From NCBI RefSeq assembly GCF_000299365.1, contig NC_018655.1:1560001-1592000 (forward strand): a DNA stretch of 32,000 bases, written 5' to 3'. Shown piece by piece: positions 6,985 through 26,629 of the stretch (the first letter of the stretch is position 1; every line of letters begins with the position of its first letter). This stretch comes from Candidatus Nitrosopumilus koreensis AR1 (GTDB lineage: Archaea > Thermoproteota > Nitrososphaeria > Nitrososphaerales > Nitrosopumilaceae). The position numbers were made by a program, and so were the translations under genes. The notes beneath the pieces were generated by a model. The model saw nothing but the letters and a program-made list of their open reading frames with translations. It was not told where the DNA came from and ran no database searches.

Positions 6985-8286
6985 ATGTCTGAACTAAAGC
7001 GACACATGGGACTTTTTCATCTCATCATGTATGGTGTTGGATTAATTCTTGGTGCAGGAATTTATGTATTAATTGGTGAAGCTGCAGGATTTGCTGGAAA
7101 TTCAATGTGGATTTCTTTTTTGTTAGGTGCAATAGTTGCAATTTTTGCAGGGTTAAGTTATGCAGAGTTATCTGCACTATATCCAAAAGCTGCTGCAGAA
7201 TACACATTTGTAAAAAATGCATTCAAGAATAATTTCTTTGGTTTTATTATAGGATGGTTAACAGCAATTACATCGATTATAGTTGCTGCAACTGTTTCAT
7301 TAGGATTTGGAGGTTATCTTACTCAGTTTGTTGATTTACCAATTACGATTGGAGCAATATTTTTGATTATAGTTTTATCGATTGTAAATTTTATTGGGAT
7401 AAAAGAATCTGCATGGGCAAATACTATTTTCGCATTAATCACTGCAGCAGGCTTAATTCTAATTATTGTTATTGGTTTTAGTGCAGAACCAGTTGAACCA
7501 ATAGACTATTTAGAAGCACCAAATGGAATTACTGGGATAATTCTAGCATTTGTTTTGATTTTCTTTGCATTTATCGGATTTGAGGATATGGCAAATGTTG
7601 CTGAAGAAGTTAGAAGACCTCACAAAACAATTCCAAGAGCAATAATAATATCAATAGTCATCACGGGTATAATTTACGTTCTAGTTTCATTATCAGCAGT
7701 AAGAATTCTAAATTGGGAAGAATTGGCATTATCCTCTGCGCCATTGGCAGATGTAGCACATTCAGTTTTGGGTACAAATGGCAGTATTACCTTGTCATTA
7801 ATTGCGCTATTTGCAACTGCAAGTACTGTTCTGATAACATTGGTTGCTGGTGCAAGAATTCTGTATGGAATGGCAAAAAGCAATTCATTGCCTCAATTTT
7901 TAGCCAGAGTTCATCCTAAGACAAATACACCATGGATTGCAGTTGTTGGAATTTTGATAGCATCAATTGGATTTGCCTTTGTTGGAGACATTGTAATTAT
8001 AGCAAATATTGTAGTTTTTGCAGTAGTTATCACATTTGCAGCAATTAATTTGGCAGTAATTGTCTTGCGATATACAGAACCAGTATTGGAAAGACCATTT
8101 AGAGTCCCAGTCAATATTGGAAAATTTCCAATTTTACCATTGTTTGGATTCGGAACAACTATCTATATGGCATTACAATTTGATATTCAAGTTGTTTTTG
8201 TAGGGCTAGGCATTATGGGAATTGGAGTAGTTTTGTATTTGGTTTTAAAAAGAAGAAATTATTTTGTAGAGTCTAATTCTTTTTAG
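6985..8286 (+). CDS. APC-superfamily amino acid/polyamine permease
   Basis: About 12 predicted TM segments. N-terminal GAGIYVLIGEAAG and FIGFEDMANVAEEV motifs are typical of APC transporters. Confidence 0.8.
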   Translation: MSELKRHMGLFHLIMYGVGLILGAGIYVLIGEAAGFAGNSMWISFLLGAIVAIFAGLSYAELSALYPKAAAEYTFVKNAFKNNFFGFIIGWLTAITSIIVAATVSLGFGGYLTQFVDLPITIGAIFLIIVLSIVNFIGIKESAWANTIFALITAAGLILIIVIGFSAEPVEPIDYLEAPNGITGIILAFVLIFFAFIGFEDMANVAEEVRRPHKTIPRAIIISIVITGIIYVLVSLSAVRILNWEELALSSAPLADVAHSVLGTNGSITLSLIALFATASTVLITLVAGARILYGMAKSNSLPQFLARVHPKTNTPWIAVVGILIASIGFAFVGDIVIIANIVVFAVVITFAAINLAVIVLRYTEPVLERPFRVPVNIGKFPILPLFGFGTTIYMALQFDIQVVFVGLGIMGIGVVLYLVLKRRNYFVESNSF

Positions 8287-8929
8287 ATTTTGTAAGTGCA
8301 ACAACTGCAATTGCTATACCTATTAGTCCAACAGCTGTTCCTGCATAGCCCATATCCATTTGTTGTTTAGTCTCTTCTAAATCATTTACAGATTCTTTTA
8401 GTTCACCAATATCCTCAATTAATGCAGTATGTCCATCAATCATTTGTTGTATTGTAATATCAGATGGTTCAGGAAATTCAATGTATGCTCGTTCTTCAAC
8501 TTTGGGAGGATGCATTGATAAACTAATTGGAGTATCTGTTATAGTTCCCAACACATTAGCCTGATAAAATCCAGATACAGTAGGATTAACAAATGCATAA
8601 TATTTTCCAGGAATGTCATGGTCTGGTGAAAGTGGAAGCATTATGTTTTCATCTTTGAAAATTAATTGTATTTTTACTGTTTTTTTTAAACCTTCAATTC
8701 CGTTTTGAAATTCTTGAGATTCTGCACATTTTATGGGTTTTGAAATTTCAGGACATGGAATTAATGGACTAACATAGAATTCAATCGCATTTGTTTCTCC
8801 TGAAACAACTGGTTCATTCATCCATCCAATTTCTACTCTATATTCACCAACAGCATCTATAGTATGTCCATATACGATTCCAATTGAGCTTGGAATCAAC
8901 AATAAAAGAAATAAAATTTCAAGTTTCAT
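8273..8929 (-). CDS. secreted, C-terminally membrane-anchored protein of unknown function (mature N-terminus predicted to be His)
   Basis: Start moved to the internal ATG at 8929, which gives the signal peptide [27 protein letters not shown]-terminal TM AVGLIGIAIAVVALT followed by KSKKN. A TATA-like ACATTTTTAAAATC lies upstream. Confidence 0.55.
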   Translation of the reverse strand: MKLEILFLLLLIPSSIGIVYGHTIDAVGEYRVEIGWMNEPVVSGETNAIEFYVSPLIPCPEISKPIKCAESQEFQNGIEGLKKTVKIQLIFKDENIMLPLSPDHDIPGKYYAFVNPTVSGFYQANVLGTITDTPISLSMHPPKVEERAYIEFPEPSDITIQQMIDGHTALIEDIGELKESVNDLEETKQQMDMGYAGTAVGLIGIAIAVVALTKSKKN

Positions 8930-9001
8930 GCTAAAAAAACTAGATTTGATTTTAAAAATGTTATATTGTTTGAAATTAGTTATACTATGAATTTGTACCA
9001 A

Positions 9002-10447
9002 TTATGCATCAGCATACATTGAAACTTCCCATGCTGTTGGGGTTTGAGCAAACGCAACATATTCTTTGTATTTTAATTCAGAATACACATCAAGAAAGTC
9101 TTTTGTGAACACTTCTTCAAGGAATTTTGAATCAGAGGATAAGGAATCAAGGGCACCTTTTAGCGATACAGGTAATGAACCAATTTTATATTCCCTTTTC
9201 TTTTCTGAAGAAAGTTTGTAAATATTTTCTTCAATTGGATCTCCAGGATCAATTTTATTTTTAATTCCGTCTAAACCCGCAAGTAATAATGCAGCTTCTA
9301 AGAGATAGATGTTTGCAGTAGGATCAGGGACTCTATATTCAATCCTCTTGCTTTTTTCTTGATTTCTATTATACATTGGAACTCTTATTGCAGCTGATCT
9401 GTTTCCCAATCCCCAGCAAACATTGACTGGTGCCTCAAATCCAGGAACCAAACGTTTGTAAGAATTTGTTGTAGGATTTGAAATTGCACATAACGCTGAG
9501 GCATGGCTCAAAATTCCTCCAATGTAATATCGTCCAGTCTGACTCATTTGTGCTTGTTCATCATCTTTATCATACATTACATTTGATTTATCATTCCATA
9601 AACTTTGGTGAGTATGCATTGCTGAAGCATTATCACCAAAAATTGGTTTTGGCATAAATGTTGCAACTTTGTTTTTTCGTTTAGCTTTGACTTTAACTAA
9701 ATTTTTCACTCCAATTACATGATCAGCCATCTGGATCATTTCATCATATTCAAGATTAATTTCACATTGACCAGAAGTTGCAACTTCATGATGTTCTGCT
9801 TCTATTCTAATTCCAAAGAAATTATACAAGTCATCACATACATCCTTTCTAAACCCCTCAAGAGTATCCTTAGGTTGAGATGGATAATATCCTTCTTTCA
9901 GATTAATTGCAGTACTAACATTTCCTTTAGCCCAAGGTGATTCTTTAGATTCAATAGAGTAACCTGAACCACCATATGATTGAGTTGCAGCGTATGGAGA
10001 TGGATAAACATTGATAGTGTCAAAAACAAAAAATTCTATTTCAGGTCCCCAATTTGTATGAGTGAATCCGAATTCTTTGAGTTTCTTTGTTGCTTTATGT
10101 GCAATTCCTCTTGAATCTCTGTTGTATCTTGAACTTTCATCAGTACTCCCATCATACAAATCACAGAAAATTCGAGCATTTCTCCTATTACCAGGATCAT
10201 AATCAGGTGGAAGAATTTTAAATGAAGTTGGATCTGGCATTAAAATCATATCAGAATGATTTACAGCTTTGAATCCAACAATTGAGCTTGCATCCAATTT
10301 TTCAAGACCATTTACAAAACTATTTTCATCAATTGCATAGCTTGGCATACCAACGTTATGCAATTCACCAAAAATATCTACAAACCAAAAATCGAGAAAT
10401 GATATTTTTTCAGCTTTTATGGTTTGGAGCACTTGTTCTGCGTTCAA
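9002..10447 (-). CDS. glnA: glutamine synthetase type I, paralog 1
   Basis: NWGPEIEFFVFD, HHEVATSGQCEINLEY, KPIFGDNASAMHTHQSLW, NSYKRLVPGFEAP, GNRSAAIRVP, RIEYRVPDP. The only possible start upstream of the conserved N-terminal domain is TTG 10447. Confidence 0.9.
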   Translation of the reverse strand: MNAEQVLQTIKAEKISFLDFWFVDIFGELHNVGMPSYAIDENSFVNGLEKLDASSIVGFKAVNHSDMILMPDPTSFKILPPDYDPGNRRNARIFCDLYDGSTDESSRYNRDSRGIAHKATKKLKEFGFTHTNWGPEIEFFVFDTINVYPSPYAATQSYGGSGYSIESKESPWAKGNVSTAINLKEGYYPSQPKDTLEGFRKDVCDDLYNFFGIRIEAEHHEVATSGQCEINLEYDEMIQMADHVIGVKNLVKVKAKRKNKVATFMPKPIFGDNASAMHTHQSLWNDKSNVMYDKDDEQAQMSQTGRYYIGGILSHASALCAISNPTTNSYKRLVPGFEAPVNVCWGLGNRSAAIRVPMYNRNQEKSKRIEYRVPDPTANIYLLEAALLLAGLDGIKNKIDPGDPIEENIYKLSSEKKREYKIGSLPVSLKGALDSLSSDSKFLEEVFTKDFLDVYSELKYKEYVAFAQTPTAWEVSMYADA

Positions 10448-10526: not shown

Positions 10527-11873
10527 TTAACTGCTTTTTGATGCCTTAATTGCATTTAATTCGTCTTCAAAGAAGAATTTATCACCAAATGCAGGCTTTA
10601 AATCATCTAACCAAATCGCATTTTCATCATATTTTGCAAAAAATGGTTTTTTGACCCAATCTGGGTTTCGTCCCTGCAAAAATCTCAAAACCAGTAATTT
10701 CTGGCCGTTAAATTCTGTAGTTCCAACGACCTGAACTTTTCCAGGAGTTGCTGACATACTAGGTCCGCGTACAGTTCTTGCCAACCCACTAACAGTAGAA
10801 TATGCTTGGCCAAAGGTTTGATATGCTTTAACCAAAGGAACTCCAAAATAATGCTGAGCGCCTGTATCTCTTACAACAAACATGTAATATGGAATACATC
10901 CAAGTTGGACCTGTTTTGTCCACATTTTTGACCACATTTCTGCATCATCATTGATATGAGCTAAAAGTGGCGATTGAGTTCTAATTTGAGCGCCTGTTTG
11001 CCTTACTTCTTTGATTGCAGACTTTACGGCATCAGTTGATAGCTCGTTTAGATGGTTAAAGTGAGCCATAAATGCAAGATGTAATCCATTATCAGTGATC
11101 TTTCTAAAAACATCCAACATTTCTTGTGAATCTGAATCAGTCAAAAACTTGTATGGCCAATAAGAAAGTGCTTTTGTTCCAATTCTAATTGTTTTAAGAT
11201 TAGGCAGTTTCGCTTCAATTAAAGCATCAACATATTTGGAGAACATTTTTGCTTTCATTATCATTGGATCACCACCGGTAAAGAGAACATCTGAAATTTC
11301 AGGATGTTCTGAAACATATTGAACAAGTTGTTCTCCTTCTTGCATTGCAAATTTCATTTCATCCATACCAACAAATTGAGGCCATCTAAAACAAAAACTA
11401 CAATATGCATGACAAGTCTGACTTTGACTTGGAAAAAACAGACAAGTTTCCTTGTATTTGTGTTGCATGCCATACAATTTTGTTCCATCATTCAAAGTTG
11501 GGACATTTAGCTCCATTTGTCCTGCTGGATGAGGATTAAGTTGTAAACGAATTTCATTTGCAACATTTGCTATCTCTTTTTTATCAGAAGTATTTTTTAG
11601 AGTATTTTCCATTTTTGAGTAATGTTCAGGCTTTAGCATTCCTTTTTGAGGAAATGTCAAAACATACATCGGATCGGTTGGTATGTTATCCCAATTGATC
11701 AATTGTTCAACCACATAGTTATTTGCCTTAAATGGCAAAACATTTCCTACAACTTCCATCTCAAACTGTTTTTCTTCAGAAAGATTCTGAATTTGTGGAA
11801 GATCACGAAAATTTGATAATGTGTATGATTTGAGTGAAGGAGAATCATCCCAAACTGATTCTTGATAGGTCAC
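10527..11873 (-). CDS. KamA-family radical-SAM/PLP amino acid 2,3-aminomutase, probably not lysine-specific
   Basis: C154-x3-C158-x2-C161 (CHAYCSFC), LFTGGDPM, PYYMFVVRD, and the putative PLP lysine in ATPGK379. GTG start directly after an in-frame stop. Confidence 0.8.
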   Translation of the reverse strand: MTYQESVWDDSPSLKSYTLSNFRDLPQIQNLSEEKQFEMEVVGNVLPFKANNYVVEQLINWDNIPTDPMYVLTFPQKGMLKPEHYSKMENTLKNTSDKKEIANVANEIRLQLNPHPAGQMELNVPTLNDGTKLYGMQHKYKETCLFFPSQSQTCHAYCSFCFRWPQFVGMDEMKFAMQEGEQLVQYVSEHPEISDVLFTGGDPMIMKAKMFSKYVDALIEAKLPNLKTIRIGTKALSYWPYKFLTDSDSQEMLDVFRKITDNGLHLAFMAHFNHLNELSTDAVKSAIKEVRQTGAQIRTQSPLLAHINDDAEMWSKMWTKQVQLGCIPYYMFVVRDTGAQHYFGVPLVKAYQTFGQAYSTVSGLARTVRGPSMSATPGKVQVVGTTEFNGQKLLVLRFLQGRNPDWVKKPFFAKYDENAIWLDDLKPAFGDKFFFEDELNAIKASKSS

Positions 11874-12031
11874 TTAGTAATTAGCACGCTAACCCTTGTT
11901 AAAGGTTACAAATTTTTTACGCATAAAACTGTTCAAATTTAATAAAAAATTAGCAAAAATTTTAAAAAATATGAGAATATTCCTTAACATTTTATTCTAG
12001 ACTATGAATGTGATTAGAATAGGGAATCATT

Positions 12032-13771
12032 TTGGCAGAAGAAGACATTTCACAAATTTCAGTAGGAGAATTTGAGACTGTTTCACAGCTTCTAGCATCT
12101 TCAGAATCACTCCAGTTGGCATTTATCATCATGATAGTTGGAATTATTGGAATTGCCATAGGATATAGAAAATTTTCATCTTGGGTAAGTTCACAAAAAT
12201 TCTATTATCAGAGACCACATGTCTCAAGATTTCTTAGAAGAGCTGTTTTGCCTTTTTTTGCAATTGCTCTAATTACAACCATTAACATCTATACTCAGAC
12301 AGGTATCTTACTAGAAGAGGATTTTAATGCAGTTAAAGATGGAGAAATGGCTCCTCAAAAAATATTTGCAAAAATTCTCAATACTTTCAACATACTTGTA
12401 ATAGGATATACTGTTTCACATCTTATTCCAATAGCTCTTACTAAACGTGATAAATCAATTTTAGAGAGAGAAGACTTTGATGCTTGGTTTGAAATGCGTG
12501 GGTTTGTTGATGATAATGGTGATCTATTTCACAAGTTGTACAAATGGGTACCTCCAAAAATCACACCTGAAGATATTGAAGAAGATGAATTCAAAGAATT
12601 GTTAAAATCCAAAGAAGGAATGCAAAAATTAGAACAGTTCAGAACAACAAAAGGTAATCCCATTGGAGGATATGAAAAATTAGTGGAAGATCCATTTGAA
12701 GACTGGAAAAAATCAGAACGGGCAAAATATGAAAAATATTTTCAAAATTGTGTTTCAGGAAACAACCAATCCGGAAGAAAATTAACACCAGGTGCAAAAC
12801 CAGAGGAAATTTATCCCATTGATGTTTGGCGAGAAGAAAAACGCACACATGGTTATGAACCAATTATTCCAAGTTCTCGTCCTCCAGGATATGCTGAAAA
12901 GAAAAGAGAGGGAATTCCAAAGTCTGCAAAACAAGTTCTACCGATAGGGATTTTTGCTGCTACCATTTTGGGAGTTATTGCATGGTGGGGAGTAGATTTG
13001 ATAGTTCTTGCTACAGCAACTGGTGGTTTCTCAATTGGTTTAGGTTTAGCATTACAAGAAACGATGCAGAATTATTTTGCATATATCATGATTAGAAAAG
13101 ACAAGATTGTAGTAGAAGGAGACAGAGTACAATTAGAGACAGGGTATAACGGATATGTACACAAAATAACTCCCAGAGTTACATACATTAGAGATGCATT
13201 ACACGAATCAATTGCAATCATTCCAACAAGACAACTTGTTTCAGCACAGATTATCAATTATACAAAAGAAAACAAACTTGTTCCAGCAATAGTCAAAGTT
13301 GGTGTTTCATATCTTAACAACCCTCGTCAGGTTGCATCTATTTTAGTAAAAGTTGGAAAACGAGGTATGAAGGAGATTGTTGATGGTAAAGGAAGACATC
13401 TAGTAAGACAGAACAGATGTCCATATCTAGATGAAAATAAACCAAGTTGTGGTTGTGACAGAGATATTCATGTAGAAGTTGTTCAACCAGTAATTAGATT
13501 TAATGATTTTAATGATTCCTCACTTGACTTTTCAATGTGGCTGTATGTAAGAGATTACGGTGCACAATTCAAAACAAAAACTGATTTGAGGATGATAATG
13601 TATGAAGAGTTTAAGAGATACGACATCAGAATTCCATGGCCAATTAGAACCATCTATCAAGGTGATGAAAAGAAAGAATTTGAAGAAATCAGTAAAGGAG
13701 ATCAGGATAGAAAAAGAGTGCTGGATGAATATGGTACGGGCGATATTGGACGTGGTGGCGGAGAAGACTAA
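12032..13771 (+). CDS. MscS-family mechanosensitive channel with a large charged insertion
   Basis: Pore-helix and beta-domain signature GGFSIGLGLALQETMQNYFAYIMIRKDKIVVEGDRV. N-terminal TM helices, with a ~165-aa Lys/Glu-rich segment between them and the pore helix. Confidence 0.75.
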   Translation: MAEEDISQISVGEFETVSQLLASSESLQLAFIIMIVGIIGIAIGYRKFSSWVSSQKFYYQRPHVSRFLRRAVLPFFAIALITTINIYTQTGILLEEDFNAVKDGEMAPQKIFAKILNTFNILVIGYTVSHLIPIALTKRDKSILEREDFDAWFEMRGFVDDNGDLFHKLYKWVPPKITPEDIEEDEFKELLKSKEGMQKLEQFRTTKGNPIGGYEKLVEDPFEDWKKSERAKYEKYFQNCVSGNNQSGRKLTPGAKPEEIYPIDVWREEKRTHGYEPIIPSSRPPGYAEKKREGIPKSAKQVLPIGIFAATILGVIAWWGVDLIVLATATGGFSIGLGLALQETMQNYFAYIMIRKDKIVVEGDRVQLETGYNGYVHKITPRVTYIRDALHESIAIIPTRQLVSAQIINYTKENKLVPAIVKVGVSYLNNPRQVASILVKVGKRGMKEIVDGKGRHLVRQNRCPYLDENKPSCGCDRDIHVEVVQPVIRFNDFNDSSLDFSMWLYVRDYGAQFKTKTDLRMIMYEEFKRYDIRIPWPIRTIYQGDEKKEFEEISKGDQDRKRVLDEYGTGDIGRGGGED

Positions 13772-25156: not shown

Positions 25157-26629
25157 TTGAAGTATAAATTGCCCTATAAAGTCAGTCACGGAAAAGCAAT
25201 CCAAGTAACATATTCACCTGACGAGGTTTTTTCAAGAATTCAACATGAGGGAATTCAATTTATCGATCTTCAATTTACTGGTTTAACTGGTCATTTTCAT
25301 CATACCACAATTTCAGCAGACACATTTACTCCTGAACAGATGAGAGACGGGCTACCAAAATTGGATGGTTCATCCATTGTGGGTTTTACTAGTATTGATG
25401 ATTCAGATTTACTTCTAAAACCCGACCCAAATACATTTGCAATAATTCCATGGATGACAGAAAACAAAACAGCTAGAATGCTTTGTGATGTATATTGGGG
25501 AGAAGGTAGAGGCAGATTATCAAGAGATCCTCGTGGAATTTCTCAAAAAGCTGAAGAGTACATCAAAACACAAGGATTTGATTTTAGTACATGGGGTCCA
25601 GAGGTAGAATTTTTTGTTTTTGATAAAGTACATTGGGATGTTTTAACACCATACAAAGGACAATCATATTCAATTGAATCTAAAGAAGCACCATGGAGTC
25701 AAGAGGGAGATGGATATCCAATGGGATTACAGGAAGGATACTATCCCAGTACACCATCAGATACGCTTACACCATACAGAAATGAATGTGTAAATATTCT
25801 AAAGAATAATTTTGGGATTTTATGTGATAATCATCATCATGAAGTTGCAACAGCTGGCCAATGTGAGATTGATATCAAATATGATTATATGACAAATGCG
25901 GCTGATGCTGCACAATCTTACAAATATGTAATTAGAAATGTTGCTCAAAAATATGGCAAGGTTGCAACAATGATGCCAAAGCCAATTGCAATGGATTCAG
26001 GTTCAGGAATGCATGTTAATGTTAGTTTATGGAAAGGAAAGGAAAATACATTCTTTGATCCAGATGATGAAGACGAACTAAGTCAGACTGCAAGATACTT
26101 TTGTGGTGGAATAATTAATCACGCAAAAGCGTTATCAGCAATTTGTAATCCAACCACTAACTCATATCATAGATTAGTGCCAGGTTATGAGGCTCCAGCA
26201 TACATTGCATGGAGTTCTGGAAACCGTTCGGCAATTGTCAGAGTTCCAAAACATCTCAAAGGAAAAGAATATTCCAATCTAAAGAGATTAGAATTTAGAG
26301 CACCTGATCCTTCATCAAACCCATATCTTGTATTTGCTGCAGTTACTGCAGCTGGTATGGATGGACTCAAAAAGAAGACGGATCCTGGTGATCAGGTTCG
26401 TGATGATATTTTCAAAATGACAAAATCAGATAGATCAAAGAGAGGAATTGGCGTTCTTCCAAAGAGTTTAGGAGAAGCGTTAGATGAGTTAGAAAGTGAT
26501 AGAAAATTCCTTAATCCAATTTATACAAATGATGTAATTGATAAAATTATAGAATTAGAAAGAAGAGATCAACGTGAAATTGCCATTAGGCCCCACCCAC
26601 ACGAATTTTATCTGTACTTTGATGTTTAG
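25157..26629 (+). CDS. glnA: glutamine synthetase type I, paralog 2
   Basis: TWGPEVEFFVFD, HHEVATAGQCEIDIKY, KPIAMDSGSGMHVNVSLW, NSYHRLVPGYEAP, GNRSAIVRVP, RLEFRAPDP. TTG start immediately after an in-frame TGA. Confidence 0.9.
   Translation: MKYKLPYKVSHGKAIQVTYSPDEVFSRIQHEGIQFIDLQFTGLTGHFHHTTISADTFTPEQMRDGLPKLDGSSIVGFTSIDDSDLLLKPDPNTFAIIPWMTENKTARMLCDVYWGEGRGRLSRDPRGISQKAEEYIKTQGFDFSTWGPEVEFFVFDKVHWDVLTPYKGQSYSIESKEAPWSQEGDGYPMGLQEGYYPSTPSDTLTPYRNECVNILKNNFGILCDNHHHEVATAGQCEIDIKYDYMTNAADAAQSYKYVIRNVAQKYGKVATMMPKPIAMDSGSGMHVNVSLWKGKENTFFDPDDEDELSQTARYFCGGIINHAKALSAICNPTTNSYHRLVPGYEAPAYIAWSSGNRSAIVRVPKHLKGKEYSNLKRLEFRAPDPSSNPYLVFAAVTAAGMDGLKKKTDPGDQVRDDIFKMTKSDRSKRGIGVLPKSLGEALDELESDRKFLNPIYTNDVIDKIIELERRDQREIAIRPHPHEFYLYFDV

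Follow-up and report, generated by a model that had tools for sequence, protein, structure and literature searches.

A predicted IdnL4-type glutamate 2,3-aminomutase in Nitrosopumilus, candidate for synthesis of the osmolyte beta-glutamate

Lysine 2,3-aminomutase (LAM; KamA or AblA) holds the epsilon-ammonium group of its substrate with two acidic residues, Asp293 and Asp330, and binds the substrate alpha-carboxylate with Arg134. The only related solved structure is that of the Clostridium subterminale enzyme (2A5H). For the clostridial glutamate 2,3-aminomutase, Eam (Clostridioides difficile), Ruzicka and Frey are said to have pointed in 2007 to a basic residue at the position of Asp293 and an Asn at that of Asp330; we take these to be Lys332 and Asn369. 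Beta-glutamate is also an intermediate in the assembly of the macrolactam polyketide incednine by Streptomyces. Its 3-aminobutyrate starter derives from L-Glu via beta-Glu, and the role of IdnL4, a radical-SAM aminomutase, was confirmed by disruption of idnL4 (PMC11284099, PMC9230918, PMC9169493); activity of IdnL4 in vitro was not observed (PMC11284099). A glutamate 2,3-aminomutase has been described from a methanogen too (MmarC7_1783; Tunckanat et al. 2022), where it reportedly supplies beta-glutamate as an osmolyte, as is proposed below for Nitrosopumilus.

The gene considered here is within a 32,000-nt stretch of the Candidatus Nitrosopumilus koreensis AR1 genome (NC_018655.1, positions 1,560,001 to 1,592,000; this is the window, and coordinates refer to it unless stated otherwise). 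It encodes a KamA-type radical-SAM/PLP aminomutase of 448 amino acids with a GTG start (10527-11873, minus strand), for which glutamate 2,3-aminomutase activity, in an IdnL4-like family, is proposed. The Nitrosopumilaceae, to which its host belongs, are among the most abundant microbes of the ocean, and to our knowledge ectoine synthesis is the only osmolyte pathway that has been studied in archaea of the Nitrosopumilus type. Of all metabolites identified in N. maritimus SCM1, beta-glutamic acid is the most abundant (about 730 mM), and it rises with depth in marine particulate metabolomes, the gene not being named by the authors (Heal et al. 2021, PMC8269262); N. maritimus beta-glutamate is mentioned also in PMC8281238. 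Literature searches found no paper tying a Nitrosopumilus aminomutase to it. The metabolite was measured in strain SCM1, and the gene is read here in another Nitrosopumilus genome. With a probability that we put at about 0.7, the protein is an IdnL4-type glutamate 2,3-aminomutase that makes beta-glutamate as an osmolyte, and its gene is the best candidate for the one responsible for beta-glutamate production in N. maritimus. Most likely the enzyme is of a kind already known, met here in a physiological setting that is new, and its public name is wrong.

The original prediction, made from the DNA letters, was of a KamA-family enzyme in which both lysine-binding aspartates are replaced, and the codon coordinates and residues that it named proved exact on translation. 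Its cluster motif, Cys154-x3-Cys158-x2-Cys161 (11391-11414, minus strand), which would hold the [4Fe-4S]/SAM cluster, is paired by phmmer with Cys125, Cys129 and Cys132 of 2A5H. The same alignment places Arg163 (11385-11387, minus strand) opposite Arg134, an arginine kept alike in the canonical enzymes and in the new family. At the first specificity position, Arg335 (AGA, 10869-10871, minus strand) stands where LAM has Asp293. Four independent alignments give this pairing: phmmer and hmmsearch with a 51-sequence profile, both against 2A5H, a MAFFT alignment that includes Bacillus AblA as well as E. coli EpmB, and profile-profile comparison by hhalign. The Bacillus reference is a true AblA, its gene adjoining ablB. 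Asp occupies this column in all six canonical cationic-substrate enzymes fetched (two AblA, Deinococcus KamA, the arginine 2,3-aminomutase BlsG, AblA-like-2 and EpmB).

The second replacement, Ser372 (AGT, 10758-10760, minus strand) for Asp330, and the assignment of Lys379 (AAA, 10737-10739, minus strand) as the PLP lysine equivalent to Lys337 are likely, and less secure than that of Arg335. The HMMER and hhalign alignments end at residue 355-365, short of the stretch with Asp330 and Lys337, and so both assignments rest on MAFFT and on gapless spacing: the distance from the last confidently aligned column to the invariant Lys is 14 residues in both families. None of the 55 rows in the alignment of the family with its references departs from Lys379. 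Position 372 is Ser throughout the Nitrosopumilaceae and Ser, Val, Cys or Ile across the wider family, where Met373-Ser374 is conserved. In E. coli EpmB, Asp and Glu are found where the aminomutase has Arg and Ser. Arg335, Ser372, Lys379, Arg163 and the three cysteines are invariant in 200 Nitrosopumilaceae orthologues, and the change of specificity residues is for that reason not due to chance. Set against the residues presumed for Eam (the alignment holds no Eam sequence), the basic residue is present as Arg335, and Ser372 replaces Asn.

The fold is that of LAM. An AlphaFold2 model built from the family alignment has a mean pLDDT of 93.3 and a pTM of 0.91, and its top Foldseek match is 2A5H (E 2e-18, TM 0.63-0.68); the remaining radical-SAM matches are at E 9e-6 or worse. 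Common to the archaeal enzyme and to the LAM of C. subterminale and Bacillus are this fold, CxxxCxxC, a GGD motif and the residues for PLP (Lys) and the alpha-carboxylate (Arg). Identity, however, is only ~20%, both side-chain-binding Asp residues are replaced, and there are inserts of ~35 residues before the cluster motif (residues about 92-125) and of 8 residues near residue 245. The C-terminus is beta-rich and appears to lack the cysteines of the LAM Zn site, as listing the Cys positions of the 448-aa protein gave none after residue 326, from which absence of that site is inferred. The original description of a KamA-type C-terminal half needs correcting for the last ~70 residues, which are not LAM-like. 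The methanogen aminomutase of Tunckanat and colleagues is said to have a long N-terminal extension; the Nitrosopumilus protein has none.

Comparison with curated models, which had been suggested at the outset, leaves the protein outside all of the named groups. Only weak radical-SAM matches are given by Pfam. The KamA superfamily model TIGR00238 gives 127.2 bits (E 6.5e-37) against a cut-off of 199.2, so that the protein is a clear homologue outside the curated family; the features of that superfamily (CxxxCxxC motif, PLP-binding Lys, LAM fold) are all found in it. Scores are far below cut-off for AblA (TIGR03820, 105.5 bits against 525.4), EpmB (TIGR03821, 100.2 against 369.3), BlsG (TIGR04468, 94.9 against 600; BlsG has Asp at the 293-equivalent) and clostridial Eam (TIGR04368, 86 bits, or 81.7 in the genome search, against 650). 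By the last score it is outside the curated clostridial Eam family. The reaction proposed is nevertheless the same, and the position of Asp293 is basic in both, though here by Arg rather than the presumed Lys, with Ser rather than the presumed Asn at the second site. The host genome, a single 1.64-Mb contig that is 99.5% complete, has the aminomutase as its sole KamA-family gene; a canonical Eam was absent from it in the TIGR04368 search, whose cut-off no control genome passes either. It was claimed at the outset that no GNAT gene of the ablB kind is adjacent. This is so, and the absence is wider: no AblB-family match is found anywhere in the complete genome, so that the AblB partner of LAM is lacking.

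A search of 1.8 billion representative sequences gave 326 relatives at E < 1e-30. The nearest are all from Nitrosopumilus or other Nitrosopumilaceae, and public names are generic only, 'lysine 2,3-aminomutase' or 'KamA family'. A translated search of plasmids brought up homologues that match over their full length at 44-51% identity, from Mycetohabitans, Nonomuraea (51.5%), Burkholderia, Nocardia, Amycolatopsis, Streptomyces and Rhodococcus. In a 55-row tree, in which Eam was not included, the family splits from the canonical enzymes LAM, EpmB and BlsG with SH-aLRT 99-100. It is a separate, long-branched lineage and, to judge by the TIGR04368 score, distinct from clostridial Eam.

Arg335 is present in 34 of the 47 family rows and missing from one 13-row subclade (SH-aLRT 99; P0146, P0157, P0158, P0163, P0165, P0169, P0172, P0174, P0176, P0177, P0181, P0182 and P0214). 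There it is replaced by Ser, Phe, Gly, Ala or Asp, and the Met-Ser motif is lost. Members of this subclade probably act on a different substrate, to judge by these residues.

The link of the family to glutamate comes from a Streptomyces homologue, that of strain NBC_00334, which is 44% identical over its full length (MAFFT). Its gene lies between those for type I PKSs, a hydrolase of the proline-iminopeptidase type, a PLP enzyme and an AMP-binding enzyme; the best PDB match of the last is 5JJQ (E 6.5e-185). We take 5JJQ to be IdnL1, the 3-aminobutyrate adenylating enzyme, and the AMP-binding enzyme presumably keeps the Leu of IdnL1 Leu220 (a 20-residue tag offset being assumed). The locus is an incednine-type 3-aminobutyrate starter cassette, and its aminomutase stands in here for IdnL4. 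In the tree the archaeal enzyme groups with those encoded in cassettes and apart from LAM, EpmB and BlsG, and the residue table shows the same pocket motif. All tabulated pocket-motif residues except that at position 372 are identical between the archaeal and NBC_00334 enzymes (Arg335-Asp336-Thr337, Arg366 and Arg369, Met373-Ser374, Lys379). They belong to the same sequence family and have in common the ~35-residue insert before the cluster motif, a C-terminus unlike that of LAM, and aerobic hosts. The settings differ: the archaeal gene adjoins genes for an MscS channel and a glutamine synthetase, not for a beta-glutamate decarboxylase, an adenylating enzyme or a PKS, and on the reading proposed here what it makes is itself the final osmolyte rather than the precursor of a polyketide starter.

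Two further bacterial loci may be mentioned. On a plasmid of Amycolatopsis sp. AA4 (L113, 6014-18218 of that locus) the homologue is amid genes for a dehydrogenase of the Glu/Leu/Phe/Val type, two CoA ester lyases, two MaoC dehydratases, a PLP aminotransferase and a CoA transferase; this looks like a pathway of C5-dicarboxylate (beta-glutamate?) metabolism and not a polyketide cassette. On the megaplasmid of Mycetohabitans rhizoxinica, a fungal endosymbiont, the homologue (L112, 7974-9353 of that locus; ~50% identical, among the closest of the named bacterial ones) is solitary, adjoining a small HTH regulator with an MFS transporter near.

In the window, the aminomutase gene is separated by an AT-rich spacer of 158 bp (11874-12031), presumed to be a shared promoter region, from a divergent gene for a 579-aa MscS-family mechanosensitive channel with Pfam MS_channel domains (12032-13771, plus strand), the proposed solute release valve. 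Downstream by 79 bp on the same strand is a gene for a type I glutamine synthetase paralogue of 481 aa, GS1 (9002-10447, minus strand), an accessory part of the putative module. Among 80 named related loci, mostly from one family of related and so non-independent genomes, the MscS gene is adjacent and divergent in 78 and a GS paralogue directly downstream in 60.

The phyletic pattern was read from 401 Nitrososphaeria genomes, 231 of them Nitrosopumilaceae. The aminomutase is present in 178 of the 231, including 83 of the 86 of the host genus, and the other 20 Nitrososphaeria families gave no comparable match (three genomes give weak KamA-type matches, E 1e-14 to 1e-22). Orthologues of MscS (158/231) and GS1 (135/231) are both nested within the aminomutase-positive set; GS1 or MscS without the aminomutase occurs only in two fragmented assemblies (G288 and G302). 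In one genus (g4) all three genes occur together in the same seven of 16 genomes, and in another (g14) aminomutase and GS1 are in the same 12 of 32. The flanking genes differ between genera. The counts include four unpublished genomes (G213, G265, G309 and G393), whose exclusion lowers each by 4 at most and leaves the pattern unchanged. By comparison ectC, which the host genome itself carries (genome positions 1005121-1005492), is in only 11 of the 231; rarity of ect genes in ammonia-oxidising archaea has been reported (PMC5924519), consistent with this count.

The mechanism proposed is that Arg335 would pair with the gamma-carboxylate of L-glutamate, that a 5'-deoxyadenosyl radical would take a C3 hydrogen from the PLP-bound substrate, and that the PLP-bound amino group would then shift from C2 to C3, with beta-glutamate as the product. 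Together with K+ this would accumulate and serve marine Nitrosopumilaceae as their chief organic osmolyte. The divergent MscS channel could let solute out upon osmotic down-shock and, where present, the GS paralogue might form beta-glutamine from part of the pool or aid the flow of nitrogen into glutamate.

Several facts bear on whether glutamate is the substrate. The host is obligately aerobic, and oxygen lability is usual among enzymes of this class, which counts against the glutamate reading. So do the low TIGR04368 score, the Ser (Val in relatives) at position 372 in place of the presumed Asn, and the failure to observe IdnL4 activity in vitro. The substrate is moreover deduced from no more than a single charged residue plus the surroundings of distant homologues (44-50% identical), and the 13-member subclade without Arg implies that specificity drifts inside the family. 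The enzyme could then be a 2,3-aminomutase for another amino acid, anionic or polar (for instance 2-aminoadipate, glutamine or some modified form of glutamate), with beta-glutamate made by another route. Against this, Arg335, Asp336, Met373 and Ser374 are identical in the archaeal and Streptomyces cassette enzymes, the genome has no second aminomutase candidate, and beta-glutamate is the dominant solute known in N. maritimus (PMC8269262); a different substrate is accordingly judged unlikely. That it should be lysine, as the public annotation as 'lysine 2,3-aminomutase' or 'KamA family' has it and as the LAM-like fold and cofactor motifs might suggest, with the product feeding N-epsilon-acetyl-beta-lysine synthesis or lysine catabolism, is barely credible: Arg335 and Ser372 replace both lysine-binding Asp residues, the AblA model gives 105 bits against the 525 needed, the AblB acetyltransferase was not found in the genome, and the Zn-site cysteines, with no Cys after residue 326, are inferred to be absent. 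The original view, that lysine is an unlikely substrate and an acidic amino acid a possible one, is supported by the invariant charge reversal, the curated models that it misses, its IdnL4-type relatives and the dominance of beta-glutamate, and in none of the alignments does Asp appear at its specificity positions.

The EpmB fold does serve protein modification, and the synteny comes mostly from one family of non-independent genomes, which together would fit a KamA-fold radical-SAM enzyme that modifies protein or is otherwise not an aminomutase, in a neighbourhood of MscS and GS genes that is merely inherited order devoid of functional meaning. This we hold to be very improbable, as the enzyme retains the lysine for PLP and the Arg for the alpha-carboxylate, the EpmB model (100 bits against 369) is missed, and bacterial relatives are in small-molecule biosynthetic clusters. 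The three genes are also gained and lost together within genera, for which inherited order alone is an insufficient explanation. Synthesis of beta-glutamate by an IdnL4-type enzyme is the reading preferred.

If it is right, naming the gene gives meta-omics a marker of beta-glutamate production, and corrects a widespread annotation as 'lysine 2,3-aminomutase'. The aminomutase is far commoner than ectoine genes, 178 against 11 of 231 genomes. An aminomutase lineage that works in aerobes is also of interest for biocatalysis, where oxygen-tolerant glutamate aminomutases are being sought (bioRxiv 10.1101/2025.11.21.689712).

A more speculative extension, on balance doubtful, is that aminomutase, MscS and GS1 are a dedicated three-gene osmolyte module, in which GS1 would amidate beta-glutamate, so that marine ammonia-oxidising archaea could adjust two solute pools, beta-glutamate (anionic) and beta-glutamine (neutral), and in which solute would be released through a channel belonging to the module itself. 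If true, it would be the first gene-level account of beta-glutamate/beta-glutamine metabolism in an aerobic archaeon. GS1 passes the GlnA equivalog cut-off (TIGR00653), as does a second GS in the window (25157-26629) to which it is 44% identical. It keeps all canonical GS-I catalytic residues except for Ala at what we take to be Gly265 in E. coli numbering, a change found in all 57 orthologues checked. These active-site residues, taken by themselves, would neither support nor exclude beta-glutamine synthesis; a role for GS1 in it is possible. The dependence of GS1 on the aminomutase is phyletic only. The second GS has Asn264Ser and His271Asn instead.

Beyond GS1 there is a 242-aa ORF (8273-9001, minus strand) that matches nothing in Pfam or NCBIfam. 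Conservation extends to 54 of the 80 related loci, and where GS1 is missing this ORF directly follows the aminomutase gene. Convergent on the module is a gene for an APC-family amino-acid permease (6985-8286, plus strand), which is probably outside it since it is in only 29 of the 80. Outside the window, a paralogue of the MscS channel (55% identical; G000:C1:1016397-1018067) is ~11 kb from ectC, and in a relative (G130) a 59%-identical paralogue is ~1 kb from ectC; this type of channel therefore seems to travel with osmolyte genes.
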